NCBI GenBank assembly: GCA_963725665.1
Contig: CAVRZA010000006.1
Location: forward strand, 288,001 to 352,000
DNA from: an uncultured Actinomycetes bacterium
GTDB lineage: Bacteria > Actinomycetota > Thermoleophilia > UBA2241
Reading direction: 5' to 3'
Length of the DNA stretch: 64,000 nucleotides
The position numbers and the translations under genes are program-made. Shown here piece after piece: positions 14,654-60,710 of this stretch. Each line of letters begins with the position of its first letter. The first letter of the stretch is position 1. The notes under the pieces are model-generated. The model was given only the letters and a program-made list of their open reading frames with translations, had not been told where the DNA came from and made no database searches.

Positions 14654-16435
14654 GTGCACTTCTACACAGGCAACGTGCTCAGGATCGATCTCAGCGCAGG
14701 CATCAGCAGGGTGGAGCCGCTCAAGATGGAGTACGCGCGGCTCTATATCGGCGGCAAGGGCCTCCTGCTCCGCTACATGTGGGACGAGGTCGAGCCGGGG
14801 CTCGACCCCTGGTCGCCCGAGAACCCTCTCTACCTTGTGACCGGCCCCTTCGCCGGGACGAACGTGACCACGTCGTCACGACTCGTAGTGGGCTGTAAGA
14901 GTCCGAAGACCGGCCTCTTCAACGACAGCTACGTCGGCGGCTCCTTTGCCCCTGAGATGAAGTTTGCCGGCTACGACATGATCGTCGTCACGGGAAAGGC
15001 ACCAGAACCCATCCTCGTCACCGTTCGCGACGACGTGGTGGAGTTTCAGACGGCAGGACAGTACTGGGGCATGAAGACATCCGAGATCGAGGAAGCGGTG
15101 CGGCGCGACTTCGACGCGGACGCGAAGGTGCTGTCGATCGGACCGGCGGGCGAGAACCTGATCACCTATTCGTGCATCTCGACCGACCAGTACCACAAGG
15201 CTGGCCGGGCCGGGCCGGGCGCAGTGATGGGGGCCAAGAACCTGAAGGCGATCGCGATCCGAGGCACGGGCAGGGTCACCGTGGGCAACGCGCGTGCCTT
15301 CCTGGAAGACATCCGGCGCATCCACAAGGAGTACATCCTCACCGACGACAACTTGTGGGCCCACGAGGAAGGCACCCCGATCCTCGTCGACATCATCAAT
15401 GGCGGCGGCGCTCTCCCCACCCGCCACTACTCGACGGGATCGTTCGAGGGCGCTACGAAGCTCAACTCTGAGTCGTTCCAGAAGATCCGCGTCAAAAAGC
15501 GCGCCTGCTACCAGTGCGCCATCGCGTGTCGCAACTTTCACGCCGTGCCGGGCGCGCGTGGTGAGGGCCCCGAGTACGAGACCATCGCGCTAGGCGGTGC
15601 GAACTGCGGCATCGATGACATCGGGGCCCTGATGAAGTTCAACGCCGACTGCGACGAGTACGGGCTCGACACGATCTCGACCGGGGCGTGCATCGCCTTG
15701 GCCATGGAGATGACCGAGAAGGGCATCCACGACTTCAGCCTGCGCTTCGGCGAGGTCGACGGCTATGTGAAGGCGGTGCCCCTAATAGCGAAGCGCACGG
15801 GTATCGGTGTCGACCTCTCCCTCGGCGAACGGGCCCTCGCGACGAAGTACGGCCATCCGGAGCTGGCGATGGAGGTCAAGGACCTGGAGTTGCCGGGCTA
15901 CGATCCGCGAGGCGCCTTCGGCATGAGCGTGACATACGCCACCTCCGACCGGGGCGGCTGTCACATGCGATCTTTCCCGGTGGGCCAGGAGATCGTCGCC
16001 GGCACGCTGCCCGCCGACACACTCGAGGGGAAGGCAGACTGGATCATCCGCTCCGGCACCGGGGGACAGGACTTCTTCGCCCTCAAGTTCAGCGGCATCT
16101 GGTGTGACTTCTGGGCCATCGACGTCAATCAGATCTCGCAACTCATGAAGCACGTCTGGGAGCGCGAGGTGAGCGAGGACGAGCTCATGCGCACCGGCGA
16201 GCGCATCTGGAACCTGGGCCGTCTCTTCAACCTGCGCGAAGGGGTGGACGACGACGACCTGCCGGAGCGCATCTTGAGTGAGCCTCACCCCTCGGGCGCG
16301 GCCGCCGGACGCGTGATCGGACGCGAGGCATTCGCAGCTGCCCTGCAGGAGTACTACAGCCTGCGCGGGTGGGACGAGAAGGGCGTGCCGGGCGAGGCCA
16401 AGCTGGCCGCGCTCGGCGTCGACGTCCGCCTCTAG
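14654..16435 (+). CDS. aor: Aldehyde:ferredoxin oxidoreductase (W/Mo-pterin), copy 1
   Basis: KSP.TG, IGPAGEN, MGAKNLKAI, CYQCAIAC, GPEYET, DEYGLDTIS, PGYDPRG, RGGCH. Confidence 0.93.
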   Translation: MHFYTGNVLRIDLSAGISRVEPLKMEYARLYIGGKGLLLRYMWDEVEPGLDPWSPENPLYLVTGPFAGTNVTTSSRLVVGCKSPKTGLFNDSYVGGSFAPEMKFAGYDMIVVTGKAPEPILVTVRDDVVEFQTAGQYWGMKTSEIEEAVRRDFDADAKVLSIGPAGENLITYSCISTDQYHKAGRAGPGAVMGAKNLKAIAIRGTGRVTVGNARAFLEDIRRIHKEYILTDDNLWAHEEGTPILVDIINGGGALPTRHYSTGSFEGATKLNSESFQKIRVKKRACYQCAIACRNFHAVPGARGEGPEYETIALGGANCGIDDIGALMKFNADCDEYGLDTISTGACIALAMEMTEKGIHDFSLRFGEVDGYVKAVPLIAKRTGIGVDLSLGERALATKYGHPELAMEVKDLELPGYDPRGAFGMSVTYATSDRGGCHMRSFPVGQEIVAGTLPADTLEGKADWIIRSGTGGQDFFALKFSGIWCDFWAIDVNQISQLMKHVWEREVSEDELMRTGERIWNLGRLFNLREGVDDDDLPERILSEPHPSGAAAGRVIGREAFAAALQEYYSLRGWDEKGVPGEAKLAALGVDVRL

Positions 16436-16900
16436 GCCCGGCTCGCGAGGGAAAGGGAGAACCAATGCCGCATGTGTTGATCTCGAAGAAGAAGTGCACC
16501 GGCTGCCACATGTGCGAGCTCGCCTGCTCGGCCTGGCACGAGGGTGTCTATCAGCCGTCGCTGGCCCGCCTCAACGTGATCGTCAATCCGACGACGGGCG
16601 TGATCAAGGGCCAGACCTGCGTGCAGACGGCCTGTCATAAGTGCCAGGACGTCTGCCCGCACGAGGCCATCTTCACCAGGGGCGGCGTGCTCTACGTCGA
16701 CGAGGCCAAGTGCAACGCCTGCGCCGACATCGCCGAGGGGCCGCAGTGCGTGCCCGTCTGTCCCTGGGACGTGATGCATATCCACCCGCAGAGCAACAAG
16801 GCCTTCAAGTGCGACCTCTGCGACGGCGATCCGCAGTGCGTCGCCTTCTGCCAGAACCCACACGTGCTGGCCGTCACGCAGAAGGCCGACAAGGCCGACG
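16340..16900 (+). repeat. Left copy of ~560-bp inverted repeat (AOR 3' end + ferredoxin)
   Basis: Reverse complement of 60151-60710; about four differences by eye. Confidence 0.93.
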
Positions 16901-16914
16901 CGGCAGCCGTCTGA
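16465..16914 (+). CDS. 4Fe-4S dicluster electron-transfer subunit of AOR, copy 1
   Basis: CTGCHMCELAC, C...C..C...CP, CNAC...CVPVCP, KCDLC.GDP.C..FC. Confidence 0.92.
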   Translation: MPHVLISKKKCTGCHMCELACSAWHEGVYQPSLARLNVIVNPTTGVIKGQTCVQTACHKCQDVCPHEAIFTRGGVLYVDEAKCNACADIAEGPQCVPVCPWDVMHIHPQSNKAFKCDLCDGDPQCVAFCQNPHVLAVTQKADKADAAAV

Positions 16915-16973
16915 CGGTCGACCGCAGACGCAGATCCAGGAGCACGAAGGAAGAGACCCCCGAAAGGACGACC

Positions 16974-18209
16974 ATGAAGGTACTCGTAGTTGGAGCGGGA
17001 GCCCAAGGCCACGTAGTCACGTGGAACCTGGCGCGGTGTCCGGAGATCAGCGAGATCGTGCTCGGCGACATCGACGAGGCGCGCGCCCGGGCGGTCGCCG
17101 ATCAGGTCGGCGGCGGCAAGACGAGGGCAGTCGCACTCGACGCGTCGAGCGTCGAGGCGGTGAAGAAGGCCGCCGCGGGTGCCAAGCTCGTTATGAACGC
17201 GACCATCCCCGAGTTCAACATGGCGATCCTAGAAGCCTGTCTGGCAGTCGGTGTCGACTACCAGGACATGGCGACCGGTACCCTCGTCGATAAGACCATC
17301 GACGAGGCGACCCTCATGCAGATGGAGCTCGACGAGGACTTCAGGAGGGCCGGCCTTACGATGTTGACGTGCACGGGCATGGACCCCGGTGTCTCGAGCA
17401 CCTTCGCCGGCAACTGCTATGAGGACCTCGACGTCTGCACCGACATCCACATCAGGGACTACGCCGTGCTCGAGAGCCCCGTGGCGCTGCAGATGTGGTC
17501 GGTGTGGACCTACTACACCGACTGCGCCACGCCGCCCCTCACGTTTCAGGACGGCAACTACGTGCGGGCAGAGCCGTTCGGGCTGCGCGAGTTCTACCAG
17601 TTCCCCGAGCCGTTCGGGCGTGGTTGCGTCGTCGCCCACGACCACGAGGAACTGTCGACGATACCGCGCTTCCTGCCCAAGCACTTCGGCGACAAGGGGC
17701 TGAGGAACGTCACCTTCAAGCTCGGTTTCGACGAGGCCGCACTCAATGCCGACGAGGCGTTCGTGGCCAGCGGGATGGCCAGCAAAGAGCCCGTCGTGGT
17801 CAACGGTGTCGAGGTGAGGCCGATCGATGTCTATTGCGCCACGCTGAAGCCCAATCCCTCTCCTGAAGAGATGAGGCGGCTCGTCGAGGCTGGCGAGATC
17901 AAGGACTACGGAATCATCCTGGTCGACGCCTGGGGCCAAAAGGACGGCAAGCCGGCAAAGTGGAACTACAGCGTCTTCACGCCGACCATCCAGTGGATCA
18001 CCGAGCGCATCCCCGGCGCGACGTCGGTGTCGTACGGCACATCGACACCCGCGGCCGTCTACTCGGAGTTCCTCGTGAAGGACATGATCACGCAGAAGGG
18101 ATGCGTCGTGCCGGAGGTCCTGGAGCGGCCGGTACGCGACGCCTTCATCAAGGAGCTGGGCGACCGCGGCTTGCGCGTGACGCGCAGCTTCGAGACGGAG
18201 ATCAACTAA
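16974..18209 (+). CDS. Saccharopine dehydrogenase-like oxidoreductase (carboxyspermidine dehydrogenase family)
   Basis: VVGAGAQG Rossmann motif, GMDPGV, HEE, VVPE. Confidence 0.82.
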   Translation: MKVLVVGAGAQGHVVTWNLARCPEISEIVLGDIDEARARAVADQVGGGKTRAVALDASSVEAVKKAAAGAKLVMNATIPEFNMAILEACLAVGVDYQDMATGTLVDKTIDEATLMQMELDEDFRRAGLTMLTCTGMDPGVSSTFAGNCYEDLDVCTDIHIRDYAVLESPVALQMWSVWTYYTDCATPPLTFQDGNYVRAEPFGLREFYQFPEPFGRGCVVAHDHEELSTIPRFLPKHFGDKGLRNVTFKLGFDEAALNADEAFVASGMASKEPVVVNGVEVRPIDVYCATLKPNPSPEEMRRLVEAGEIKDYGIILVDAWGQKDGKPAKWNYSVFTPTIQWITERIPGATSVSYGTSTPAAVYSEFLVKDMITQKGCVVPEVLERPVRDAFIKELGDRGLRVTRSFETEIN

Positions 18210-18336
18210 CCCCGCCCACGTGGGCCGAGGCGCTTCGTCGCCGGCTACGAGTCCAAGAAGAAGAAGCGAGGCGGGGACGGCCCATATGGGCCGCCCCCGC
18301 TCACGTCGTCACCCGTGGATGCTTGGGGTCACAACC

Positions 18337-19930
18337 CTACTGCACGTCGACGAAGATCGGGTTCGAGTAGAACCACAGGTCGGCCCACGCCTTGGCGGCG
18401 GTGTTCGTGCCCATCCTCATGTCGAGGCGCGGGTTGCCGGCGGCGGTGGTCTGGTTCTTGACGTCCAGGCCGAGGTTCGTGCCACGCAGACGGAAGTACA
18501 TGTCGCTGGTCACATTGTCGGCGGTCGTGGTGATGACGTTGAAGCCCTCGCCGTCGACGGTCCAGTCGGCGGACGTGAAGCGTTGCACCACGTGCGTCGA
18601 CGGGTTGGTCTTGTTGCTCTTGAACTCGGGGCTCGACGGGTCGATCAGGCCCGTCACGTTGCCGGCGATGAGGTCGACGTGATCGACGACCGGCACAGTC
18701 ACCGTGGTAGTTGGTCGCCGGGCTCTTGAAACGGATGGTGATCGTCACGGTCGAACCCGAGCTGACGGCGAGCGTGCCGCCCATCTCGGCCGGCTCACTC
18801 CCCGACGCGGCGGTGAAGTCGAGCTCGTTGATGAGTCCACCCATGGCCGAGAAGGACTTGCCGGCGCGCAGGCCATCGACGATGCCCTGCTGGGTGAACT
18901 CGGCCACCCAGGTGTGGTCCTGGTTGTACTCGCCGGGCCAGAACTCCTCTTCGGGGTTGTGGAAGTCGGAGTCGGCGAAGATCCAGAAGTGGCGGCCTTC
19001 GCCGAGCAGCGCATCCCACACGCCGCCGATCTTGGCTGTGTAGAGGTCCGCCCCGCCGTAGGTGCGCGCCGTGTTGGTGACCGCCCAGCTCACCTTCTTC
19101 ATCTCGGCAGGGCTGTCCTCGTCGAGCGCGCGCCCGTTCTTGTCGAAGAACGAGTCGTAGCCGCCGCGGAACGGCTCCTTCTGGGAGCCGGGGACGCCGG
19201 CCATGCCGAAGCAGACCGTGGGCGCCGCGTTGTTGAAGGTGCGGATCGCTGCGACCGGCCAGCGCAGGTCACGCGAGGGGTGGCTGATGACGCTGTAGGC
19301 GCTGTCGGGGTAGGTGTCTTTGAGAAAGGTCGCACCCGCGACGTACCCCGTCGGGCCTTGGTTCTGCTTGGTCACGCCGAGTACCGCGCGTGAGATGTCG
19401 GGCTCTGGAAGTCGAACTTGTAGATGAAGTCGCTGAGCGAGATCGGCATGTCCTCGATGATCGCCGTCTTGGCCTCAGCGTCCTCCTCACCCTTCGTCAC
19501 GGGGACGCCCCACTCGACGCCCTCGATGATGATCTTGCCGGGGTAGCTCGGCCTGAGCTGCTCAAGGAGCGGCCACTCCAGATCCTTGAGGCTCAGCCAG
19601 ACGTCCATCGACACCTTCACGGGATCCCAATCGACGTTCATGCCCGCGCAGGCGCTTGCCCAGCGGATCGAACGTGGACGGCGCGCCGTGGTCTGCCGTC
19701 CCGATCCAGTCGAGGCCGAACTGCGAGAGGGCGTGCTCCAAAACGGCGGCCTCGGTCTCTTCGCCATCGCTCAGCCAGGTGTGGTTGTGCATGTCGCCGG
19801 CTACCCACTGCCCCGGAAGGGGGGCGGCGCCGGCGGTCCCGCCTTTGACAAGAACGGCGCCGGCCACGACGGCCAGGCCGACGGCAACGATCACCGCCAC
19901 GGCAACGACGGTCTTTCGTGACGAGAACAT
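18337..19930 (-). pseudogene. Secreted PHP-family metallophosphoesterase split by three frameshifts (pseudogene or sequencing error)
   Basis: Signal peptide, GDMHNHTWLSDG, TADHG, GVEW, SHPSR, DSDFH, WFYSNPIFV across four consecutive ORF pieces. Confidence 0.75.
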
Positions 19931-20092
19931 GGTGCCCCTTTCTCGCGGGATGCATGACGGATGAGAAGCCCCTCATTGGGGATGTGCAGTCCCCGAGCTT
20001 CACCGATCGGTAGCGCGGAACCCCTCACCTCCTCCCCCACGAGACGACGCGCGTACCCCGCTCAGGCTTCGCTGCCATCTCGAGTGCCGATT

Positions 20093-20192
20093 GTAGACTG
20101 TCAACTGGGTGTCTGTCGAGGGTCCGACCGAGGACTCGGGCACGGAGACGTTGCCCACTCGCAGCGCTCCTGATAGATTGTCGACTGTCGAC
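20093..20192. promoter_or_regulatory. Two copies of the putative GntR operator
   Basis: GTAGACTGTCAAC 20093-20105; GTCGACTGTCGAC 20180-20192. Confidence 0.65.
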
Positions 20193-20262
20193 TTAGCGAG
20201 GCCCAGGCGGCGCACGATCGGCGGCGCCGCGGCCGGACCAACGGCTACGAGGAGTCCTCCCC

Positions 20263-21699
20263 ATGACGACTGATGCTGCTCCCCAACCCCGCACTCTCAC
20301 CCCGCGTGTCCGGACCAAGCTGCCCGGTCCCAGGAGCCGAGAGCTGCTGGCCGTGAAGGACAGGGTCTTCTGCGGCCCCTTGCGCGAGGGCGTCGACGTC
20401 CCTTTCGTCATGGCGCGCAAGTCTGACTGGATCATCGAGGACGTCGACGGCAACACGTACGCGGACCACGTCTCGGCTTGGGGCTCCACTCCGCTTGGGG
20501 CCAAGCCTGAGGTCGTCCTCACTGCCACGGCAGAAGCCATGCAGCGCTACGGTATGGAGATCACCGACTACGTGATGAGCGAGCCGCCGCTGGCGCTCGC
20601 CGAACGCCTGCTCGACATCGCGCCGCCCGGGATCGCGCGCGTCGGGCCGAGCATCAGCGGTACGGAGGCCGTCGAGGCCGGCGTGAAGCTCGCCCGCGAA
20701 GCGACAGGCCGCCCCATGATTCTCGGCTTCCACGGTCAGTATCACGGAGAGTCGACCTATCTGACGGCGGCCGCCAGCACCGACCTCTCCGAGGTGAGCA
20801 GCAACAACGCGCAATACGTATCGGGCTTCGTGTTCACTCCGTACCCCAACCGGTTCCGCGCTCCCTTCCATCGTGGGCCCGGACCCTATGACGACACGAT
20901 GTACGTGGATTTCATCGAGGAATGGCTCCTCGTCCACCAGGTTGACCCTGAGCAGATCGCCGGCGTCCTCATCGAGCCAGTGCTCGGCGAGGGAGGCATC
21001 CTCATCCCCTCTCAGGCATTCTGGGACCGGCTGACGGGCCTCTGTCGACGCTTCGGATGGAAGCTGGTCCTCGACGAGGTGCAGACCTGTCTGGGGCGCT
21101 GTGGGACCATGTTCGCCGCCGAGATCTGGGGCCTCGAGCCTGACGTCGTCCTCATGGGCAAGGCCATCGCCGGCGGAGGTCAGCCGATCGCCGCCGTGCT
21201 GGGCACCGAAGAGGTCATGAGCGAGACCGACGTGCAGCCGGGTGGCACCTTCGCGTGGACGCCGGCAGCCTGCGCCGGGGCCTTGGCGAGCATCGACGCG
21301 ATCGTTCGCGATCAGGCCTTGGAGAACGCCCAACGGCTCGAGCAGATCGCTCGCGAGACGCTCGAGCCGCTCGTCGAGCGGTTCGAGCAGGTGGGCGACG
21401 TGCGCGCCATCGGCGCGTGGGTCGGCGTGGAGTTCGTGACAGACAAGGAGAGCATCAGGCCCGCGCCGGCCTTCCACAGCGCCGTGCACCAGGCCCTGGT
21501 GCGACGCGGCGTCCTCGGCATCACCCAGTGGGGCAAATGGGTCTACCGGATGCAGCCGGCGATCAACATGCCGGCGGAGCTCTTCCGCTGGTCGTGTCTG
21601 CAGGTGGCCGATGCCGTCGACGAAGTGTCGAAGGCCCCCCCGCGGGAACCGGGACTGCTCGACCGCTACGTCGGCGGCGAGCGGCGGCGCACCGGCTAG
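20263..21699 (+). CDS. Class III PLP aminotransferase (GabT/PatA-like)
   Basis: LPGPRS, SGTEAVE, YHG, EPVLGEGG, DEVQT.LGR.G, MGKAIAGG, GGTF. Confidence 0.92.
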   Translation: MTTDAAPQPRTLTPRVRTKLPGPRSRELLAVKDRVFCGPLREGVDVPFVMARKSDWIIEDVDGNTYADHVSAWGSTPLGAKPEVVLTATAEAMQRYGMEITDYVMSEPPLALAERLLDIAPPGIARVGPSISGTEAVEAGVKLAREATGRPMILGFHGQYHGESTYLTAAASTDLSEVSSNNAQYVSGFVFTPYPNRFRAPFHRGPGPYDDTMYVDFIEEWLLVHQVDPEQIAGVLIEPVLGEGGILIPSQAFWDRLTGLCRRFGWKLVLDEVQTCLGRCGTMFAAEIWGLEPDVVLMGKAIAGGGQPIAAVLGTEEVMSETDVQPGGTFAWTPAACAGALASIDAIVRDQALENAQRLEQIARETLEPLVERFEQVGDVRAIGAWVGVEFVTDKESIRPAPAFHSAVHQALVRRGVLGITQWGKWVYRMQPAINMPAELFRWSCLQVADAVDEVSKAPPREPGLLDRYVGGERRRTG

Positions 21700-21791
21700 G
21701 CCACCCCGCGATGCGCCTCGCCGGACGCCTCGCGGGCGGCTCACGGCGAAGGCCAGACCCCGCCCATGATAGCCCGGGATCAAAATGGACC

Positions 21792-21830
21792 GAGCCGCGG
21801 CGGGGCGCCTGCGGCGCCCCGCCGCGGCTC
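21792..21830. terminator. Inverted repeat between convergent genes
   Basis: gagccgcggcggggcgcc-tgc-ggcgccccgccgcggctc. Confidence 0.65.
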
Positions 21831-21859
21831 TCGTCACTCACCGTAAGCGGTGCTGCCTG

Positions 21860-23935
21860 CTAGTGCATCGCCCCGATCTGCTCCGGCAGGAGTTCGAGGA
21901 CCGCGGCCATCGCGTTGAGCCGCACGTCGAGCTCGCTCGCCTGCCGATCGCGCTCTTCTTGCAGGTCGTCGATCGCCTGGCTCAGATCGCCGGCCTCGAT
22001 CGCCCGGTACTCGGGCAGCACGTCGATCGGCTGCGGCAGGTGTCCCTGCCCGGCCCAGTTGATCGCCCAGTAGTCGGGGTCGTGGCGGTTCAGCTCGTGG
22101 TAGTACACCACGGGGCTGAAGGTGAGCCCGTACCAGGTGAAGCCGATGCCGGCCAGCGTCTCGAGCGCCGCTGCGGTGTCGGGCGACGGCGCCTGCAACG
22201 CCGCCAGCGCGCTGTTCACGGCCTGCAGGTCCCAGAGTACCTGCTGGTGCGGATAGACAGTGTTGTCGCCCCAGTCGAGGGCGGTGAAGTTGCGGTTGAT
22301 CGCCTTGGCCACCTTCATCAGCAGGCGGCTCGCGTCGGCTCGCGCCCCAGGTGAGATGCTCGCCGCCCGGGCGTCGTACGCGGCCGCTGCATCCTTGAAC
22401 GCCTGCACGGCGCCGGCCAGGCGTGTCGCGGCGGCCGACGATGCGCCCGCCGCTTCCAGCTCGGCGGGGTTGACGGTGCTCTCGATCTGCACGGCGCGCG
22501 CCGTCAAGTTGTACGGCAGCAGCCGCCTGTCGAGCGCGACGCCCACCTTCTGCAGCATCTTCACGCAGGAGGCGAAGTACCGCCAATCGACCTTGGTGAC
22601 ACTGTCGTTGGGCGTGTGGTAGTTCCACGGGTACCACGAGTCGGCAGACGCCCAGAGCGACACAGCGGGGATACCGGCGGCGTTGAAGGGCCAATGGTCG
22701 CTGCCGCAGTCGACGTTGTCGAAGACGTCGGTGGGCCCGTCCGGGCCGACCAAGCTGGGGTTGTTCTCGATGATCTTCTGCATGAGCGGCAGGACTTCGG
22801 AGCTGACGCCGAAGTACATCTGCCCGTCGGGGCTGCCGGCGCCTTCCACGTTGAGCACGCCGGCGACCTTGCCCGGCCAGCTCGCATGGACTTTCGTCGC
22901 CGAGTACCAGGCCCCGTAGCACCAGTCGTACCAGGTGTCTACCTGGCCTCCCTCCTCGCCCGTGGTCGAGAGGAAGACGATCGTGCGCCGCGGCACGTAG
23001 CCCGCCATCTTCATCGCCCTGGCGATGACGAGCTGCGCGACGTCGGCTGTCGTGTTGTCGACGGCGCCCTGGAAGAAGGCGTCGTGGTGAGCGACGAAGA
23101 GGATCTTCTCGCCGTTCTTCACACGGCCGGGGATGACACCAATGACGTTGTAGCCGGTGCCGCCCTCGGTCCCCAACGTGAGCGTGGCGTTCAGCTTCAC
23201 GGTGGCAGTCGTCGGCCCCGCGGCGATCTTCGCCTTCAGCCAGTCGCCCTTAGCGCGCCCGATGTAGACGAGCGGCGCCCAAGAGGGATCGTGCTCGCCG
23301 TCATTGCTGCCAAGGGTGTTCGGGTCCTCGAAGAACGCCGTGTTGTCGATTGACGTCGTGAAGATCAGCGCCTTGGCGCCGCGGATCGTCGCCTCGTGCG
23401 AGGGACAGTTGCTCCAGCAGTCCTGGCTGCCGGGTGAGTGGTCGTCGGTGAAATCCATGAGCACGATCTTGCCCGAGACGTCGCCCAGGGCGTCGAACTC
23501 CGCCGCCGTGCCGCGCCCCGCGTAGACGACCTCGCCGGTGATGCCGCCCTTCGGCGTACCGGCGATGCAGGTGAACGAGGAGGCCTGCATGAGGCGGGTG
23601 CCGACCTTGACGCTGGCGCCCCGAAACTCCCAGGCATCCATGGTGATGGGCTCCAGGTGCACGTTCCTGAGCCCGGCGAGCTGCATCTGTGAGGCCAGAT
23701 AGAGCGAGCACTGGAAATCGGCCCTGCTGCCGCCGGTACGAAAGCCGAGCGGGCTGTCGCCCAGACTGCAGATATAGCGCTCTACCCGCTGTGGGAAGCC
23801 TCGCTGCAACAGGATGTCGACCGCACGGTCGAGGCTCGGCCTCGACGATGCCAGGGTCGGCGGCGGCGCTGCGAGGAGTGTCGTGAAGATCAGTAGGAAC
23901 ACCGTGATCGGCAGGGTTGTGCGGGATCGGCCCAT
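21860..23935 (-). CDS. Secreted M28-family peptidase with PA domain
   Basis: Signal peptide, VAHHD, GAVDN, GEE, LNVE, SDHWPF, YHTPND. Confidence 0.87.
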   Translation of the reverse strand: MGRSRTTLPITVFLLIFTTLLAAPPPTLASSRPSLDRAVDILLQRGFPQRVERYICSLGDSPLGFRTGGSRADFQCSLYLASQMQLAGLRNVHLEPITMDAWEFRGASVKVGTRLMQASSFTCIAGTPKGGITGEVVYAGRGTAAEFDALGDVSGKIVLMDFTDDHSPGSQDCWSNCPSHEATIRGAKALIFTTSIDNTAFFEDPNTLGSNDGEHDPSWAPLVYIGRAKGDWLKAKIAAGPTTATVKLNATLTLGTEGGTGYNVIGVIPGRVKNGEKILFVAHHDAFFQGAVDNTTADVAQLVIARAMKMAGYVPRRTIVFLSTTGEEGGQVDTWYDWCYGAWYSATKVHASWPGKVAGVLNVEGAGSPDGQMYFGVSSEVLPLMQKIIENNPSLVGPDGPTDVFDNVDCGSDHWPFNAAGIPAVSLWASADSWYPWNYHTPNDSVTKVDWRYFASCVKMLQKVGVALDRRLLPYNLTARAVQIESTVNPAELEAAGASSAAATRLAGAVQAFKDAAAAYDARAASISPGARADASRLLMKVAKAINRNFTALDWGDNTVYPHQQVLWDLQAVNSALAALQAPSPDTAAALETLAGIGFTWYGLTFSPVVYYHELNRHDPDYWAINWAGQGHLPQPIDVLPEYRAIEAGDLSQAIDDLQEERDRQASELDVRLNAMAAVLELLPEQIGAMH

Positions 23936-23956
23936 GGCTACCTCCCGAGTAGGGTT

Positions 23957-25274: not shown

Positions 25275-25293
25275 TGGCATGAGGAGTCGGTCG

Positions 25294-51896: not shown

Positions 51897-51947
51897 CCAC
51901 AGGCAGGCTTCAAGGCCAGGCCGCTCCAGGGAGGAGCAGGGTCCCAC

Positions 51948-53216: not shown

Positions 53217-53280
53217 TGCCGCGACTAGATCTCGTGCCCCCCGCGCAGCGTACCCACCCTGTGGCGCAAACGCCTGGCTT

Positions 53281-53502: not shown

Positions 53503-53530
53503 GCCGCGGCTCTGGTACTCGGCGCAGCCA

Positions 53531-53821
53531 GTGGAGAGTGGTCAGCGCCACCTGGCCCACCAGGCCGCTCGCACACAACGGGCCTGCGCGCTCTTCACCG
53601 ACTCGGATGGTATCGACGGCGCGACCGACGCGGCGGGGGGCCTGGTCGACGACCTCACCGTGCGCGAGGCGGGCGAGCGCGGCGTCGATATCGGCGCGGC
53701 CCTGGCCGCGCACACCTCGAAAGACGCGCTCGCCCGCCTCGCCGATCTCGTCCTCACCGGCCCCACCGGCACCAACGTCAACGATATGAAGATCCTGCTG
53801 AAGGCCGCGGCAGCGCGTTGA
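53531..53821 (+). pseudogene. C-terminal (MOFRL) fragment of a glycerate kinase
   Basis: DSDGIDGATDAAGG...LVLTGPTGTNVND; N-terminus missing. Confidence 0.82.
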
Positions 53822-53863
53822 TGCCCGGGATCGGGCAGGCCGACAGCTTCGCCGAGCCGCGGA

Positions 53864-54268
53864 TCAGCCGAATCCGAACGGTCCCCACAGGTAGAAGACG
53901 ACCGCGTTCCCGACGCCCGCGGCCAGCGTCATCAGCAGCGCCACGCCTGTGATCCACGCCGATGAAGAGTGCGGCCGTCCGCGCCGGCCCGCAGCGAGCG
54001 CAAGAAGCACCAGCGCCACCGCGTCGGCGGCGCCGACGACGATGTAGATCGCCGGCGTCCAGAGGGTCCGCACCGCCTCATCCGGGTGAGCGAGGAACGC
54101 CCACAGCACGAACGCGAGCGAGGCCATGAGGATGACCAGCGCAGCCACGATGGAACCTCGGCGTGTGCGGCCGACGCGCAGGTTGTGCACGAACAGTTCG
54201 AGCGTCAGCAGCGGCCCCAGCCCGATGAGAAGCACAAGCGCGATGACGAGCACTGCGTTGCGTGGCAC
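53864..54268 (-). CDS. Hypothetical membrane protein (about 4 TM segments)
   Basis: Four hydrophobic stretches; plausible codon usage. Confidence 0.6.
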   Translation of the reverse strand: MPRNAVLVIALVLLIGLGPLLTLELFVHNLRVGRTRRGSIVAALVILMASLAFVLWAFLAHPDEAVRTLWTPAIYIVVGAADAVALVLLALAAGRRGRPHSSSAWITGVALLMTLAAGVGNAVVFYLWGPFGFG

Positions 54269-54468
54269 GGTACCCCCGTCGGTAGCCTGCGGTCGTCGGA
54301 CCCGCGAGCACTGACGCAATACTACAGGAGGCCGGCAGGGGCGACGCGAGGTTCCCCGGCCCGCGGAACGTTGGCGCCTCATGGCCCCAAGCGCCGTCCC
54401 TCGTCGCCACATGACGCAGACCGCTTATGCAGCGATGGGCACGACGTCGCCGCGCGCGCAGTGAAGAG

Positions 54469-55733
54469 GTGGCGGGCAGTGCGGGAGTTACACCCGCCTA
54501 CGTGATCCAGAATCCTCCTAAACTCATAAGAGATACGGTGAGCGGGTCTTTTCGAGCCTAGAAGCGCAGATTAGGGGAGGCAAACCGGCCTGCGCTGAGC
54601 CTACTGTCAAACACCTCGTCAAACACCTAGACGCGCTACGCGCGGCCAGTCCGTCCCTCCGCAACGGGCAGCGGCGCTTCATCAGGGCAAGCGGCTATGC
54701 CCCGTCGAGTCCCTTAGGGGCGGCGGGAGGCTCGGCCGGGCGGCCTTGCTCGTCAGCGGGAGGTCGTCAGACGACTGGACGCTCACCTGTGTTGTCGCGG
54801 CGGGGCGTCTATGCAGTTGGAGGCGGCGTCGTCGTGACTGGCAGTCACCTGCGATTCTGCGCCCTTAGGACCAGCAGGCCTATGCCAAGCATGACCACGA
54901 GGGCGACCAGAATGATGAGGGGTCCTATGATTCCGCCTCCTATGTCCGTCGTCTTGGTCAGCTTAGCAGACGGTGGGTCATGACCGGATTGGCCCCCTAC
55001 CCGCCCGCGCCCTGGCCCCTGCGCTCACCCGTGCCGTCGTGGCGGTCGCCTGCTGGAGCCGGAGGCGGGCCGATGGTGGTGGCTATCTTCGCCGCTTCCT
55101 ATCGAGCGCGACCACGGCAGCGATGCCGGTACACAGGAGAGCCGAGAAACCAGTCGAGCCAGCCGGAGAAGACCACAGACGCCCACAGGGACAGCGCCAC
55201 GCACGGGTCCCCCTAGAGCTGCCGCCGGAGCCACGCGGGGTCAGTCTCTTTCCTGAGTAGCGACCTCGGCCCACTTGGCGTCGGAGATGACGCCCGAGGT
55301 GTCGAGTTCGCGTCGGTCCAGTTCACGCTGTTCGTCCATGTCACCTCCCTCGCGCGATGAAGCCGAGCGCGCCGCCCGCAGCGAAGGCGAGGACGCCGAA
55401 GAACGGGAGGGCGAAGATGGTCATGAGGCTATTCCACTGGGTCGTCGTTCGATGGTCATGGGGCTATTCCTCTAGGTCGCGGTTGGCATCGTCGGGCGGC
55501 GGCACGATGGGGAGCTGGATGCGGAGCCTCACGCCCACCGGGGCTACGGGACAGCGGCACCGAGGCAATCGGCGTCGGCCTGAAGATGAAGAGCTACGAG
55601 GGTTGGCCGAAGACAGCGCCGGACGAGTGGTGTCTTGAGTTCGTCGAGCAGGCGACCTGACAAAGGTAGGAGGGCGGCTGTCTATCCGCGGAGTAAGAAA
55701 GTGGCGGGGAGTGCGGGAGTTACACCCGCCTAC
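54469..55733. mobile_element. ~1.2-kb remnant of an element integrated at the tRNA-Pyl 3' end
   Basis: 33-bp direct repeat 54469-54501 vs 55701-55733 (one mismatch); tandem GTCAAACACCT; only tiny ORFs (55241-55339, 55341-55424); no integrase. Confidence 0.8.
54606..54628 (+). repeat. Tandem 11-bp direct repeat, possible integrase arm-type sites
   Basis: GTCAAACACCT-c-GTCAAACACCT about 105 bp inside the att-like repeat. Confidence 0.55.
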
Positions 55734-55774
55734 ATGGATTTAGAGTCCATGCTGATCTTTCCGATCGACCCCCC
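55702..55774 (-). tRNA. pylT: tRNA-Pyl (anticodon CUA)
   Basis: GGGGGGU C GAUC GGAAA GAUC AG CAUGGA CUCUAAA UCCAUG UAG GCGGG UGUAACU CCCGC ACUCCCC G CCA: one base between acceptor and D stems, small D loop, 6-bp anticodon stem, 3-nt variable loop, no UUC; follows pylD. Confidence 0.97.
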
Positions 55775-55828: not shown

Positions 55829-56638
55829 CTACCGCAACCCCTCGAGTGCCATGGTCACAACGCCCAGGGCGAGCGGCTCGTGTATGTGGCGCTCGCCGAG
55901 AGCGGCGGCCGTTTCCAGACCCGCCGCCGGCGGGATCCCGGGGGCCGATACGATGCTGTCCGGAGTCACCCACTCTGCGGGGATGAGGTCGCCCACGGGG
56001 GCGGCGTCGAGGACCAGGTGACTGCGGGCGAGACCCTCGGCGAGTTCTACGGGTTGCAGACCGAGCTCCCGCGACACTCGCGCGAGCCGCGCGCGGTCGG
56101 GGTCGGCGGCGAGGGCGGTGGCGCCAAGCGCCACCGCCCTCGCCGCCGCGGTGCTGCCGACCGGACCGAGGCCGAGAATCAGAACCTCCTTGCCTCGCAG
56201 GCCCCCCGCTGCGGCGTCGAGCGCGGCGAGGAAGGCGCGCCCCGTCGCCTCACCGTTGTCGGAGCACACGCCGGTCGTGATATTGAGTGCGATGAAGCGC
56301 TCCTCGTCGGCCGCGAACACAAGCCGGGCGCCAGCCTCGGCGGCCTCGGCGAGGCCGGAAATGTCCGGATGCGCGGTCACCCAGGCATCGCAGCCCACGT
56401 GTCGGCAGATGCTGGCCACCGACTCAGAGAACCCTGAGATGAAGCCCTGGCCAGCGGAGATCGGCAGAGCGACCACCGGGGCATCCCTGAGGCGTTCGTC
56501 GGCCTCGTCCGACCGCAGATCCAGCGCGTGCGCGGCGATGGCCGCCAGACCGAGCCCGGTGGCACGCGCGAGCCGCTCATCGAGCCCAGCGACGCCGTCG
56601 GGCAGCCAGCGCACGTCGTCCTCCGTCAACCTCGTCAT
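55829..56638 (-). CDS. pylD: Pyrrolysine synthase
   Basis: MTRLT, P.SAGQG.I.GF, D..G, ADE.RF, NGEATG, GLGPVG, PG.P, HEPLALGV. Confidence 0.93.
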   Translation of the reverse strand: MTRLTEDDVRWLPDGVAGLDERLARATGLGLAAIAAHALDLRSDEADERLRDAPVVALPISAGQGFISGFSESVASICRHVGCDAWVTAHPDISGLAEAAEAGARLVFAADEERFIALNITTGVCSDNGEATGRAFLAALDAAAGGLRGKEVLILGLGPVGSTAAARAVALGATALAADPDRARLARVSRELGLQPVELAEGLARSHLVLDAAPVGDLIPAEWVTPDSIVSAPGIPPAAGLETAAALGERHIHEPLALGVVTMALEGLR

Positions 56639-56696
56639 CCGACGCCCCCCGCTCCTTTCGCGGTCCCTGCTCGAGCCGTGGACGATCCCCTGCGGG

Positions 56697-57914
56697 TCAT
56701 GGCTGTCCACCGCTCGCCACAGTCGCTGACCGAACCCCATGGGGGTTGACCTCAGGAAGCAGCCGCAACCCGCACTCCTCCGCGATGCGCGCCTCGACGT
56801 CGTGGGTGCGGCGGCGCGCCTCTGCGACATCGCCGCCGCGCACGATCAGGGTCGCCACCCACTCCCGCTCGCCCCCGTCGAAGTCCGTCATCGCCTCGTC
56901 GGCGCCGAAGAAGCCTTTGACAAGCTGCAAAGGCGGCGCGGAACCCATGACGTGCTCCCCCACCACCTGCAGCGCGTCTTCGCGGGCGCGCACGTGCTCG
57001 TAGACGACCCCGCGCAGTACGCGCCGGTTCGGTTCCGGTACGGCGCCGGTCGCGAAGGCCGCGACCAGCAGTTCGAGGAGATTGACGTCGTAAGCGTGCA
57101 GCACCGCGGCCGGCGTCTGGCTGGGAAGCCGGGCGTCGATCTCGATGACCTTCGCCTCACGTCCGGCGATCATCACCTCGACGTCCATGATGCCGCTCAG
57201 CCGCAGCTTCGCCGCAAGCCGTTCGCCGCTGTCGGCGAGCGACGCCAGCGCCTCCTCGACGACGTCCGCGTAGAACGCGTCCCCGGCAACCGGAGCCGTG
57301 ACACGCTTGCAGTCGAAGGCGTCGTCGAACTCGAGACCCGTGACCAGACACGGCACCGACCTGCCCTCGAGCGCCAGCACCTCGATGGAGAGCGAGGGGC
57401 CGGCCACGAACTCCTCGACGACGACCTCGTGGCCGGCCCGCTCGAGGTCGAGCCGGGCCTCCTCGAGCTCGCGCTCACTTGCCGCCACGCGCACTCCCTC
57501 GCTGCCGCTGGCGGCGCTCGGCTTGACCACCGCCGGCAGGCCGCACACCGGCCAGGGCAAAGGGGCCGGCACACCTAGCTCGCGCATGAGGTCGTTGGAG
57601 GCCGCCTTCGACGAGGTCACGCGATACGCCGACAGATCGAAAAGCAGCGGTACGCCGAGGTCTGGAGCGAGCCGCGCCAGCCTCTCGAGCGCCGCGTCGT
57701 CCTCACAGGCCGGCAAGACGGCGTCGCAGGAAGCCAGGAGCTCACGCGCCAGCGCCTCGTCACGCGTGACGTCGAGGAGGTGGCTCTCGGTGGCGAGGCC
57801 GGTGGCGGGACGTCCCTCGCGACGGTCGATCAGGACGGTCTCAAAGCCGGCCTTCAGGCCGAGGTAGCAGGCCTCCGTGCCCTGAAGCTTGCCACCGACT
57901 ACTCCGAGACGCAT
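56697..57914 (-). CDS. pylC: 3-methylornithine--L-lysine ligase (ATP-grasp)
   Basis: VGGKLQG.EA.YL, PA.E, AY...SSK, KP...SGS.GV, DCKRV, EIDARLPSQTP. Confidence 0.95.
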   Translation of the reverse strand: MRLGVVGGKLQGTEACYLGLKAGFETVLIDRREGRPATGLATESHLLDVTRDEALARELLASCDAVLPACEDDAALERLARLAPDLGVPLLFDLSAYRVTSSKAASNDLMRELGVPAPLPWPVCGLPAVVKPSAASGSEGVRVAASERELEEARLDLERAGHEVVVEEFVAGPSLSIEVLALEGRSVPCLVTGLEFDDAFDCKRVTAPVAGDAFYADVVEEALASLADSGERLAAKLRLSGIMDVEVMIAGREAKVIEIDARLPSQTPAAVLHAYDVNLLELLVAAFATGAVPEPNRRVLRGVVYEHVRAREDALQVVGEHVMGSAPPLQLVKGFFGADEAMTDFDGGEREWVATLIVRGGDVAEARRRTHDVEARIAEECGLRLLPEVNPHGVRSATVASGGQP

Positions 57915-57936: not shown

Positions 57937-59028
57937 TCAGACCGCGATCGAGGCCATCTGGCGCGCTTTGGTGGCGTCCACCCACTCGCCGTACTCGGCG
58001 GCGTCGGCGGCCTCGAGCCCTAGAGCCGGCAGGTGCTCGGTGACGCCGGCGACGCTACGCAGACCGGCGTCGATGTCGAGCTCCGACTGCGAGACGCCGC
58101 ACAGGCCCGACGAGGGCGGCACGAGCGAGGTGACGACGCTGGCGCCGGCCTCGAGGCGCGCCTCGAGGCCGGCGATGCCCTCGACGTCGAGCGAGGCCGG
58201 GATAAGGCGTTCGGGCATCACGAGGCGCATGCATGCGATCACGAGCTGCTCCTCGAGCACACCGACGCTCGTGAGCCCCGCGAGCGGCGTGCCCGGCTGG
58301 GGCACGAAGCTCATGACCCGCACCTGGGCGAGCGGCTGGCGGCGCATCTCGAGGATCGAGTTGGCGCGGTCGGCGAAGGTCTCACCGACGCCGATGAGGA
58401 TGCCGTCTTCGACGAGGAGGCCCGAGCGCGCCGCCGCGCTGCGCGCGGCGGCGCGCTCGTCGTAATCCTGCCGTAGCCGAAGGCGCGCGTAGAGGTCGCG
58501 CGTGTGCGTCTCCTGGTAGCATGCGTACCAATCGGCGCCGACGGCCGCCAGCTGGGCGAGGACGTCGTCGGGGACGACGCCCGGAGAGACCATGACCGGC
58601 AGGCCGACCTCGCGCCTCACCGTCGCCACGAGGTCGACGAGAGCGCTGAAATCGCGCGCATCGTGGATCAGGGGATCCTCGCCCATGGTGAGGTCGAGGA
58701 GGTGCACACCCGAGTCCGCCAGATCGCGGCATACGGCGACCACCTCAGCGACCGACTTGCGGTAGCGCGGGCTCTCGGTGTTGTCGCGGCGGTAGAAGCA
58801 GAACGTGCACCAGTTGCGGCAGTACGTCGAGAAGTAGACGAAGCCGTAGAGGAAGACGCGGTGGCCGAAGTTCTCCTCACGCGCCGCGCGCGCGGCCGAG
58901 AACACCGCCTCGGCATCCTCACGCGAATCGATGCCCAGCAGACGCTCGAGCTCGCGAGGTGCGAGATCCTGGCCGCAACGAGCGCGCTCGAGGATGTGAA
59001 CGATCTCGGGGGAGGCCGACCGGGTCAT
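57937..59028 (-). CDS. pylB: Methylornithine synthase (radical SAM)
   Basis: YGFVYFSTYCRNWCTFCFYR, SGVHL.DLTMGEDP, YQET, MSFVPQ.GTP, IPASLDVEG. Confidence 0.96.
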   Translation of the reverse strand: MTRSASPEIVHILERARCGQDLAPRELERLLGIDSREDAEAVFSAARAAREENFGHRVFLYGFVYFSTYCRNWCTFCFYRRDNTESPRYRKSVAEVVAVCRDLADSGVHLLDLTMGEDPLIHDARDFSALVDLVATVRREVGLPVMVSPGVVPDDVLAQLAAVGADWYACYQETHTRDLYARLRLRQDYDERAAARSAAARSGLLVEDGILIGVGETFADRANSILEMRRQPLAQVRVMSFVPQPGTPLAGLTSVGVLEEQLVIACMRLVMPERLIPASLDVEGIAGLEARLEAGASVVTSLVPPSSGLCGVSQSELDIDAGLRSVAGVTEHLPALGLEAADAAEYGEWVDATKARQMASIAV

Positions 59029-59040: not shown

Positions 59041-59667
59041 TTACCTGAACTCGAGCACGTCGTCGATGGGCAGACGCTTGCTGCGGCGGAGCGGACCGGC
59101 GGGACGCCCGAGCGGCACTAGAGCCACGATCTGGGCGGGCGGCTCGACGCCGAGGAGCTGCTCGAGCTCCGGCGCGGCGATGACGGGCGCCGTCATCCAG
59201 CAGGTGCCGTAGCCCATCGTGTGCGCGGCCGTGCAGAGGAGCTGCACGGCCGCGCCGATGCTCTGCAGGTCCGGCCGCGCGCGCAGCCGGTCGCGCTCCT
59301 CAGCCGTGTAGCCGGCCTTCAGCAGCAGCTCATCGCCGCGGGAGATGTACGGCAGGCCGAGCACGACGACGGTCATCGGCGCCTCGGCGAAGAACGTGGA
59401 GTAGCCCCTCATGCCGTGCGTCTTGGCAGCCTCGCCGCGGAGCGAGGGCCAGGCGGCGATCTCGTCGAGCTTGGCGGCCACGGTCTCACCCATGCGGTGC
59501 AGGAGGTCGCGGTCGTCGACGGCGATGAAACGCCACACCTGCTTGTTGCCGGCGTTGGCCGCTCGCGTAGCGAGCGATATCATCCGGCGCACGTCCTCAC
59601 GAGGAACCGGATCGCTCGTGAAGCGACGCACGCTGCGCCGACCCTCGACCGCGTCCGCGAAGGTCAT
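59041..59667 (-). CDS. Nitroreductase family flavoprotein
   Basis: RRSVRRF, A.NAGNKQ.WRF, G.GTCW; ends 12 nt before pylB. Confidence 0.88.
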   Translation of the reverse strand: MTFADAVEGRRSVRRFTSDPVPREDVRRMISLATRAANAGNKQVWRFIAVDDRDLLHRMGETVAAKLDEIAAWPSLRGEAAKTHGMRGYSTFFAEAPMTVVVLGLPYISRGDELLLKAGYTAEERDRLRARPDLQSIGAAVQLLCTAAHTMGYGTCWMTAPVIAAPELEQLLGVEPPAQIVALVPLGRPAGPLRRSKRLPIDDVLEFR

Positions 59668-59783
59668 GGCGTCGGATGTCTTTGCGCGTCGGAGCATGGC
59701 GAGGTGTGCCCTCCCGATGGATGGTAGCAGAGTCGGGCGTCGGCCTGCGCGCCGCTAGCGCGGTCCGTCACGTACCGCAACCT

Positions 59784-59829
59784 GCGGGGGGCGGGTGGGC
59801 GCCGCTCACGGCGCCCACCCGCCCCCCGC
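59784..59829. terminator. 20-bp inverted repeat after moaD
   Basis: gcggggggcgggtgggcgcc-gctcac-ggcgcccacccgccccccgc. Confidence 0.65.
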
Positions 59830-59865: not shown

Positions 59866-60132
59866 TCAGCCTCCGGAGATCGGCGGCACGATGTTCAGCT
59901 TGTCGCCGTCGTTCAGCGGCGTGTCGAGCCCCTGCAGGGCGCGGATGTTCTTGCCGTTGAGGAAGACGCCGACCCACATCTTGTCGTCCTTGAAGATGCG
60001 CGGGCCGAGCCGGGGCTCACGGCGGATGAGGTCATCGAGGGCCTCGCGCACCGTCGCGCCCTCGCACTCCAGTTCCTTCTGCCCCTCGGGATAGGTGAGC
60101 CCGATGGGCAGCTTGAGCAGCGCCTTCGCCAT
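59866..60132 (-). CDS. MoaD/ThiS-like sulfur carrier
   Basis: Beta-grasp size, NG.NI..L.GLDT.L..GD, C-terminal PPISGG. Confidence 0.9.
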   Translation of the reverse strand: MAKALLKLPIGLTYPEGQKELECEGATVREALDDLIRREPRLGPRIFKDDKMWVGVFLNGKNIRALQGLDTPLNDGDKLNIVPPISGG

Positions 60133-60133
60133 G

Positions 60134-60586
60134 TCAGACGGTCACCGCCTCGTCGGCCTTGTCGGCCTTCTGCGTGACGGCCAGCACGTGCGGGTTCTGG
60201 CAGAAGGCGACGCACTGCGGATCGCCGTCGCAGAGGTCGCACTTGAAGGCCTTGTTGCTCTGCGGGTGGATATGCATGACGTCCCAGGGACAGACGGGCA
60301 CGCACTGCGGCCCCTCGGCGATGTCGGCGCAGGCGTTGCACTTGGCCTCGTCGACGTAGAGCACGCCGCCCCTGGTGAAGATGGCCTCGTGCGGGCAGAC
60401 GTCCTGGCACTTATGGCAGGCCGTCTGCACGCAGGTCTGGCCCTTGATCACGCCCGTCGTCGGATTGACGATCACGTTGAGGCGGGCCAGCGACGGCTGA
60501 TAGACACCCTCGTGCCAGGCCGAGCAGGCGAGCTCGCACATGTGGCAGCCGGTGCACTTCTTCTTCGAGATCAACACATGCGGCAT
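60134..60586 (-). CDS. 4Fe-4S dicluster subunit of AOR, copy 2
   Basis: Protein identical to 16465-16914 except the last few residues. Confidence 0.92.
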   Translation of the reverse strand: MPHVLISKKKCTGCHMCELACSAWHEGVYQPSLARLNVIVNPTTGVIKGQTCVQTACHKCQDVCPHEAIFTRGGVLYVDEAKCNACADIAEGPQCVPVCPWDVMHIHPQSNKAFKCDLCDGDPQCVAFCQNPHVLAVTQKADKADEAVTV

Positions 60587-60710
60587 GGTTCTCCCTTTCC
60601 CTCGCGAGCCGGGCCTAGAGGCGGACGTCGACGCCGAGCGCGGCCAGCTTGGCCTCGCTCGGCACGCCCTTCTCGTCCCACCCGCGCAGGCTGTAGTACT
60701 CCTGCAGGGC
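60151..60710 (-). repeat. Right copy of ~560-bp inverted repeat
   Basis: Reverse complement of 16340-16900. Confidence 0.93.

Follow-up and report, generated by a model that had tools for sequence, protein, structure and literature searches.

A 64,000-nt stretch of an uncultured actinomycete genome (the window; positions 288,001 to 352,000 of contig CAVRZA010000006.1, GenBank assembly GCA_963725665.1) carries two gene pairs for an aldehyde:ferredoxin oxidoreductase (AOR) and its ferredoxin, together with the pyl genes for pyrrolysine. One pair belongs to operon P (aor2-fdx2-moaD-nitroreductase-pylBCD-pylT), and the other, Q, is aor1-fdx1 within a ~43-kb block of catabolic genes. The 3′ portions of the two pairs form an inverted repeat of 565 nt. 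Comparison with related sequences makes it probable that this repeat is a gene-conversion tract between anciently duplicated aor-fdx operons, with P in its ancestral place and relocation of the block separating pylS from pylBCD-pylT. The repeat, the ancient paralogy of the pairs, the ancestral gene order, the other locations of the block, and the P-type context of the closest ferredoxins are established.

The window lies on contig C6 of genome G000 (3.73 Mb, 12 contigs, 5% marker contamination). Genes were named by Pfam and NCBIfam profiles and tRNAs by ARAGORN; NTR and sacDH denote the nitroreductase-family and the saccharopine-dehydrogenase-like gene. Gene order was compared with 14 pylB regions, each at most 20 kb long, from 13 relatives, onto which the window proteins were mapped, and with 80 metagenome loci obtained by a scan with the ferredoxin as the query.

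The inverted repeat and the two aor-ferredoxin pairs

Pairwise alignment and blastn placed the repeat at 16340-16904 (+) and 60147-60710 (-), with an identity of 98.9% (5 mismatches and 1 one-base gap). The arms are 43,242 nt apart on the same contig, with aor1-fdx1 on the plus strand and aor2-fdx2 on the minus strand. A repeat search of the whole window returned two adjoining inverted pairs (16450-16904/60147-60601, 455 nt, 98%; 16340-16464/60586-60710, 125 nt, 99%), and blastn against the whole 3.73-Mb genome showed that the tract is present in exactly two copies. It comprises the last 32 codons of aor, a spacer of 29 or 28 nt, and codons 1-145 of ferredoxin genes encoding 149 and 150 amino acids. 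An earlier note on this DNA had described an inverted repeat of ~560 bp, over which otherwise diverged aor genes become nearly identical along their last ~30 codons, the spacer, and the ferredoxin gene; this description was borne out. Outside the tract, five more inverted pairs with identities of 73-77% (14642-16265 versus 60785-62420) make up the remaining ~1.7 kb of homology, and the whole aor-fdx homology extends over 2297 nt at 79.4% (blastn). The similarity switches sharply at 16340, and the other edge lies inside the last five ferredoxin codons. Within the tract, the arms differ by one non-synonymous substitution in the aor codons (Gly/Ser), a one-base indel in the spacer, and three synonymous substitutions in ferredoxin codons 1-145, and the last 4-5 ferredoxin codons also differ, including a 3-nt in-frame indel. 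These differences, with every substitution in the shared ferredoxin codons synonymous, indicate two separate genes under selection and not one sequence assembled twice.

The AOR proteins themselves are far more diverged. Aor1 shares 68% identity with Aor2 and 71% with the ABC-transporter-linked AORs on contig C1 of G012 and contig C1 of G003, two genomes of other genera. In a 29-row aor tree, aor2 was nested in clades of other genera's moaD-linked aors (96 and 98, both starred), and aor1 fell outside them. An approximately unbiased (AU) test with 19 rows rejected a clade of aor1 and aor2 (lnL difference 45, p 0.005). In the ferredoxin tree, in contrast, fdx1 and fdx2 were sisters (97/100, the latter starred) on a long branch. 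The tract thus groups by genome and its flanks do not, which argues for gene conversion rather than recent duplication of the whole unit. Three marks of conversion known from tuf genes were found: homologs inverted on one replicon, a sharp-edged tract (98.9% over 565 nt) within diverged homology (73-77% over ~1.7 kb), and a conflict between the trees of the tract and the flanks. The proposal in the earlier note that gene conversion took place between diverged aor-ferredoxin loci is therefore supported by the 99% tract in ~76% homology, the sisterhood of the ferredoxins, and the AU test.

The direction of the transfer was approached through the sequences closest to the shared ferredoxin. The four closest metagenome ferredoxins (L063, 93%; L064, 88%; L065, 83%; L066, 82%) lie behind an aor2-like gene in every case, with moaD downstream in the three contigs of these four that reach that far. 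The block-linked ferredoxins of relatives (G003 C1, G012 C1, L100, L107, and L141) are only 55-57% identical. In 100-column windows, P and L063 show 91-96% nucleotide identity through the right end of the tract into moaD, and the similarity to Q vanishes at that end. The context of the closest ferredoxins and the continuation of the P/L063 similarity into moaD point to P (aor2-fdx2) as the likely donor and Q (aor1-fdx1) as the recipient. In the proposed event, a ~565-bp segment of P comprising the 3′ end of aor, the spacer, and the ferredoxin gene would have overwritten, or been added to, the matching part of Q, presumably by RecA-type ectopic recombination. The outcome would be identical partner ferredoxins, with the 565-bp inverted repeat 43.2 kb apart as a by-product, and both aor-fdx copies are presumed to be expressed. 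The argument that the conversion was favoured by paralogs having been brought within 44 kb of each other was dropped, given that intrachromosomal recombination rates in Salmonella are reported not to correlate with distance (PMC8262849).

A tract of the same kind was sought in the other genomes with both loci (G012, G003, and G001), where the longest identical run was only 31-35 nt. In G012, the comparison of the block-linked locus L034 (C1) with the pyl-linked locus L050 (C4) gave a mild rise in identity over the ferredoxin part (80-91%, versus ~72% for the aor bodies), which may reflect an older conversion of a similar kind. The block-linked ferredoxin of G012 groups with the pyl-linked ferredoxins of its own genus.

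Ancestral order of the pyl genes and the position of the catabolic block

The window encodes a bacterial split pyl system: pylSn, pylSc, pylB, pylC, and pylD all scored above the curated NCBIfam cut-offs, and a tRNA-Pyl(CUA) is present. The gene for pylSc (8212-9084) was absent from the account in the earlier note; between it and pylSn are genes for a methylamine-type corrinoid protein and a radical-SAM protein. Among the relatives, pylSn is located within 3.8 kb of pylD in 9 of the 14 loci, mostly with the Germane/Gmad2 gene (Gmad2) between them, pylT directly follows pylD, and the pylD-C-B strand is opposite to that of pylSc. From pylB, the order continues into (nitroreductase-)moaD-fdx(-aor) in 8 of the 14, and in G012 the pyl locus then extends to an ortholog of the binding-protein gene found next after aor2 in the window. 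The metagenome loci gave a similar arrangement. The ferredoxin gene is followed by moaD within 600 nt in 59 of the 80, by something else or nothing in 12, and by the contig end less than 300 nt on in 9; a same-strand sacDH follows it in none of the 80. Nineteen metagenome loci reach pylD: 14 continue to Gmad2/pylSn, 4 stop within 1.5 kb, and the remaining one shows no match over 3.1 kb. From these comparisons, the ancestral map reads pylSc(+), pylSn(-), and Gmad2(+), followed by pylT, pylD, pylC, pylB, NTR, moaD, fdx, and aor, all on the minus strand. The window has this order and orientation, with ~43 kb (12.34-55.70 kb) added between Gmad2 and pylT, so that the pylS and pylBCD halves are 44 kb apart. 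Judging from the map, P is still in its ancestral order and orientation relative to pylSc and pylSn. The gene string aor-fdx-moaD-nitroreductase-pylB-pylC-pylD-pylT (55702-62408 in the window) is conserved in the family, as seen in L014, L016, L021, L024, L025, L063, L065, and others, and our literature search returned no paper linking pylB, pyrrolysine, and aldehyde ferredoxin oxidoreductase together.

The earlier note had offered a different history, in which a RecA-mediated inversion between the arms split a contiguous pyl region that flipping 16.9-60.15 kb would restore. Its geometry is correct: after a flip of 16905-60146, moaD would start ~14 nt past the left arm, pylB would lie ~6.7 kb from pylSn, and sacDH would stand behind fdx2/aor2. 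The repeat is also long and similar enough for homologous recombination, and PMC6735719 and PMC5485169 describe conversion at the tuf genes as associated with inversion. The history itself did not survive the synteny check that the note had named beforehand. The order and orientation in the relatives are the present ones, and the flipped map (Gmad2-SBP-AsnC-aor1-fdx-moaD-NTR-pylB-C-D-pylT, all on the plus strand) was found in 0 of the 14 relatives' loci and 0 of the 80 metagenome loci, that is, in 0 of 94; the present map differs from the ancestral one by an insertion. A flip would bring pylBCD closer to pylS, yet in the opposite orientation and behind aor1, and it would couple aor1, which lies outside the moaD-linked clade holding aor2, to moaD, and aor2 to the block genes. 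We therefore regard an inversion as the cause of the split as most improbable. On the gene orders compared, an inversion is neither shown nor needed for the present map. A flip would not lead back to the ancestral order, and it is in the orientation as assembled that both ancestral operon junctions are preserved.

The history preferred here is relocation of the block. According to Pfam, the block contains genes for a solute-binding protein and an ABC transporter, aor1-fdx1, an aminotransferase, a grd-type reductase set with thioredoxin, dehydrogenases, decarboxylases, a LarA-like protein, and others, and it is an amino-acid/amine catabolic block. A homologous but rearranged block (~37 kb) occupies part of contig C1 in G003, whose pyl locus is on C2. 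By blastn, the flanks of the G003 block map to 460950-438722 and 438697-405107 of G000 contig C11, where they meet at a 12-nt spacer between convergent genes, indicating an empty site. In G012, the block lies on contig C1 between the equivalents of G000 C11 409287 and 410848, in the opposite orientation to the backbone, and this site is also empty in G000. The block is thus at three different places in three genera, and its position between Gmad2 and pylT is, on this comparison, the derived state. The pyl halves would have become separated in this lineage because the block came to lie between Gmad2 and pylT.

A more speculative and improbable reading is that the block moves as a unit between chromosomal sites without a recognisable mobility gene; the empty sites in G000 are clean. 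No integrase, transposase, or recombinase family was represented among the 60 open reading frames (ORFs) of the window (Pfam) or the 12 small or unnamed ORFs (PHROGs), and no mobility gene was found by these scans at the block ends or in unnamed ORFs; the PHROGs scan of the 12 gave one weak match of unknown function (E 1.7e-4). There are no tRNA genes in 80 kb around the G003 block. The hallmarks of a tRNA-targeted island were also absent in the window: no integrase gene lies beside the tRNA end (none in 53.8-55.7 kb or the rest of the block), and tRNA 3′ direct repeats do not occur at both ends, with a copy at 54470-54501 and none near 12.4 kb. The 3′ sequence of pylT has only two matches in the window, and the 32-nt copy at 54470-54501, which can be extended to 50 nt at 86% and is the single scar seen, is wrongly placed to bracket the block. 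The DNA of 54502-55701 and on to 53.86 kb had neither a homolog in the relatives' loci nor a match to any family. The region 54470-55701 resembles an att-type scar of a lost integrated element.

Several traces of rearrangement were observed within the block. At 53531-53821, a 96-residue MOFRL fragment is 80% identical at the nucleotide level to the 3′ end of a glycerate-kinase-like gene of G003, a match that marks it as a relic of a deleted gene. An intact trio of OCD, glycerate-kinase-like, and enolase genes (49015-53216) has a lower G+C content (62-63%) and 80-85% protein identity to G012, in contrast to 56-70% for most neighbouring block genes, which suggests exchange between genera. The sacDH/CehA-like/131-residue trio (16973-19810) is 81.7% identical to G003 at the nucleotide level (sacDH, 87% at the protein level), compared with ~72% for the rest of the block, and is inverted relative to the order in G003. 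Next to grdE, a fragment at 34913-35239 is similar to the 3′ ends of the 41561-42691 binding-protein gene (a direct repeat with 42360-42561, 73%) and of its G003 ortholog; it is probably a gene remnant from block rearrangement.

Evidence against the conversion reading and the question of inversion

A number of observations weigh against conversion from P to Q in an ancestral pyl locus. In the aor tree, aor1 is placed in an unresolved fork and the moaD-linked aors do not form one clade; in addition, the group rejected by the AU test was chosen once the tree was known. The ferredoxin tree does not tell the donor, the G000 pair lying on a long branch. The similarity of P to L063 also climbs, from ~78% to ~90%, at the same left boundary as that of P to Q. 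The aor segment just upstream is hypervariable in every compared sequence, and the parallel jump implies that the boundary partly reflects this segment or further recombination; the boundary probably marks where homology becomes usable, and more exchanges among relatives are conceivable from the alignments. As for gene order, pylS is missing from the retrieved stretch around pylBCD in 4 of the 14 relatives' loci (G022, G023, G020, and a second copy in G019), and pylSn-pylSc-pylBCD are collinear in a locus from another family, so the ancestral order is common and not universal. The comparison genomes represent other genera only (PylB ~57-64% identical), none being of the window's genus, and all synteny is drawn from them for that reason. 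Finally, 24 public runs were screened (Logan contigs, best word share 0.32) and four were compared with 9000-21000; the listed pieces were 151-1454 nt long and mostly 90-95% alike, and none of them spans 16340-16904 with unique sequence on both sides.

One of these public pieces bears on what happened at Q. In record 31 of run X4 (1454 nt, ~93% alike), 57 nt connect the 3′ end of aor with sacDH, and there is no ferredoxin gene; the record matches 16331-16435 joined to 16967-18211, with 81 mismatches over the 1245 nt of sacDH. This contig raises the possibility that the event was an addition to Q instead of a replacement: the aor1 locus would have lost its ferredoxin gene, and the aor2 3′ end with fdx2 would have been pasted in, anchored by homology on the aor side and joined illegitimately past the stop codon. 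That the tract stops exactly at the end of the ferredoxin gene, with the last 4-5 codons altered there, fits such an addition. The X4 piece, however, is a single low-depth contig (8.5) from a different organism, the block-linked aors of G003, G012, L100, L107, and L141 carry a ferredoxin gene, and a deletion in the X4 organism would explain the junction equally well. We consider the addition unlikely.

The X4 contig is also relevant to the assembly. An artefact would consist of a misoriented segment between the arms or of a ferredoxin copy mis-threaded into the aor1 locus, as might be conceived in a perhaps binned assembly of 12 contigs with 5% marker contamination, where short reads cannot span a 565-bp repeat and where a related contig lacks the ferredoxin gene between aor and sacDH. 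Against this, both junctions (aor2-fdx-moaD and aor1-fdx-block genes) are those expected from the relatives, the arms differ at six positions and by the 3-nt in-frame indel and each runs into unique sequence, and contig C6 contains no N at all. An artefact therefore seems very unlikely. The GC skew is weak across the entire contig (~-0.01) and the 43-kb segment is not distinct in it, so that the skew is uninformative on orientation.

A repeat of 565 bp and 99% identity should be a good RecA substrate, and a plausible one for homologous inversion of the segment. The gene spacing (1 nt from fdx2 to moaD; 59 nt with a ribosome-binding site from fdx1 to sacDH) makes read-through plausible, and promoter and terminator scans found no terminator-like site directly after either ferredoxin gene; their counts were at the level of shuffled sequences, except for one promoter-like site upstream of aor2 (62524-62495). 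If the segment flipped, aor1-fdx would read into moaD and aor2-fdx into sacDH, and a promoter swap follows logically. The effect on pyrrolysine synthesis is uncertain because the 168 nt that separate moaD from the nitroreductase gene contain a 21-bp hairpin, ahead of pylBCD. The hairpin has no U-run; it may act as a terminator or attenuator and uncouple pylBCD from the aor promoter.

A reversible switch, in which both orientations coexist and exchange the aor promoters reading into moaD(-pyl) and into sacDH, would make use of this tight spacing. The same geometry recalls the site-specific systems Hin/Gin, Fim, and the shufflons, in which inverted repeats bracket a segment and a flip changes the pairing of promoter and gene. 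Those systems have inverted repeats of tens of base pairs and a dedicated recombinase gene beside or inside the segment. Here the arms consist of 565 bp of coding sequence, 43 kb lie between them, and neither Pfam (60 ORFs) nor PHROGs (12 ORFs) revealed a recombinase gene; the hairpin may insulate pylBCD, and the tuf inversion in Salmonella carries a fitness cost according to the papers cited above. Coexistence of both orientations is thus given little credence. Equally doubtful is the more specific idea that use of the repeat maintains it, with RecA inversions at low frequency letting the aor1 promoter drive moaD and, past the hairpin, NTR-pylBCD-pylT, and the aor2 promoter drive the block. 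If true, pyrrolysine supply would be under a homology-based, bet-hedging switch in a genome where methylamine methyltransferase genes containing TAG number at least 14. In the whole genome, 8 Dimeth_Pyl-family (mtbB-type) and 6 MTTB-family (mttB-type) frames have exactly one in-frame TAG each, and ~24 MTTB-family frames have none; the pyl system is clearly in use, and the organism is a heavy user of both pyrrolysine and non-Pyl MttB homologs.

Related systems, features, and significance

The closest parallel is the tufA/tufB pair of Salmonella enterica. According to PMC6735719 and PMC5485169, which cite Hughes 2000, the inverted paralogs are kept nearly identical by RecA-type conversion with an average conversion walk of ~500 nt, up to about half of the selected recombination events invert the segment between them, and the inversion is viable but costly. 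As with these genes, inverted paralogs on one chromosome have been homogenised here, and the tract of 565 nt is near the tuf walk length given there. Unlike tufA/tufB, only the 3′ quarter is homogenised, the rest being ~76% identical; the partners are accessory metabolic operons and not essential genes, and the host is an uncultured high-G+C anaerobe. Inversion products are known for tuf; here none was seen among the short public contigs, none of which bridges the repeat. The present case is a new example of a known process, the concerted evolution of inverted paralogs.

The ferredoxin genes are of the type that accompanies AOR. The pairs have the AorAB/WOR5-type arrangement, an AFOR_N and AFOR_C subunit with an adjacent gene for a 16-Cys 4x[4Fe-4S] subunit, and the best PDB matches of fdx1 are 9mqx_E and 6x1o_B/6x6u_B ('Oxidoreductase, Fe-S subunit'), along with the AorA-type 8c0z_C (E 8e-15) and the BamC-type 4z3w_E. 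In Aromatoleum aromaticum, aorABCDE comprises genes for the catalytic AOR subunit, a four-[4Fe-4S] small subunit, and MoaD-like proteins (PMC6365974); the window shares the aor, the four-cluster small-subunit gene, and the MoaD-like gene, but in the order aor-fdx-moaD. No gene for an FAD subunit (AorC-like) was found by Pfam beside either aor copy, the remaining genome not having been searched for one. From the PDB matches and the Aromatoleum comparison, the ferredoxin is taken as the Fe-S subunit, and the repeat would thus span the electron-transfer partner of AOR plus the AOR C-terminus.

Bacterial pyl cassettes are usually contiguous. Unlike other bacterial split pyl cassettes, pylS and pylBCD in this family are divergent neighbours and not one operon, and pylBCD follows aor-fdx-moaD-nitroreductase. 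The features of the window are collected in Table 1. Just to its right, at G000 C6:352328-353531, a second sacDH paralog (48-50% identical) is split into two overlapping matches, as would be expected of a frameshifted or broken gene.

Table 1. Positions of the repeat arms, the pyl genes, and neighbouring features in the window
Feature	Position	Strand	Basis and remarks
pylSc	8212..9084	+	TIGR02367, 314 bits
Methylamine-type corrinoid protein (MtbC-like)	9144..9944	-	Pfam, NCBIfam
pylSn	10890..11291	-	TIGR03912, 119 bits
Germane/Gmad2 gene, last of the ancestral pylS side; adjoins pylT-pylD in relatives	11272..12339	+	Pfam, synteny
~43-kb catabolic block between Gmad2 and pylT	12340..55701	.	homologous blocks elsewhere in G003, G012
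aor1, tungsten-type aldehyde:ferredoxin oxidoreductase	14654..16435	+	Pfam AFOR_N + AFOR_C; ORF open from 14453; homology to aor2 from ~14642
Left arm: last 32 codons of aor1, spacer, fdx codons 1-146	16340..16904	+	repeat search, alignment, blastn
fdx1, 149 aa, 16 Cys, Fe-S partner subunit of AOR-family enzymes	16465..16914	+	Pfam; PDB sequence matches 6x1o_B, 6x6u_B, 8c0z_C, 4z3w_E
sacDH, first gene past the left arm	16974..18209	+	Pfam; 87% identical to the G003 gene in the homologous block
Partial pylT copy: 3′ 32 nt, 1 mismatch, 1.2 kb downstream of pylT	54470..54501	-	repeat search
pylT, tRNA-Pyl (CUA)	55702..55774	-	ARAGORN; after pylD in relatives too
pylD; family match begins at ORF residue 66	55829..56830	-	TIGR03911, 211 bits
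pylC	56697..57914	-	TIGR03909, 339 bits
pylB	57937..59028	-	TIGR03910, 448 bits
Nitroreductase-family gene	59041..59697	-	Pfam, NCBIfam
Perfect 21-bp G+C hairpin between moaD and the nitroreductase gene	59784..59829	-	folding z -3.4; 0/200 shuffles fold as well
MoaD/ThiS-family gene; start codon 1 nt past the fdx2 stop	59866..60132	-	Pfam, NCBIfam
fdx2, 150 aa, identical to fdx1 over residues 1-145	60134..60586	-	Pfam
Right arm: last 32 codons of aor2, spacer, fdx codons 1-146	60147..60710	-	repeat search, alignment, blastn
aor2, positional ortholog of relatives' moaD/pyl-linked aor	60615..62408	-	Pfam, synteny, tree

The repeat itself is a textbook product of ectopic gene conversion and as such adds little new. 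For users of the assembly, the 43-kb segment is bracketed by a recombination-competent repeat, and its orientation consequently needs long-read support. The comparison of the loci indicates that the pyl genes here are not a scrambled cassette awaiting a flip; in this family pylBCD-pylT is the tail of a conserved aor-ferredoxin-moaD-nitroreductase string, and a large catabolic block has changed place at least twice among three genera. The limitation of the homogenisation to the ferredoxin partner and the last 32 AOR residues hints that both AOR paralogs share one electron-transfer subunit sequence.

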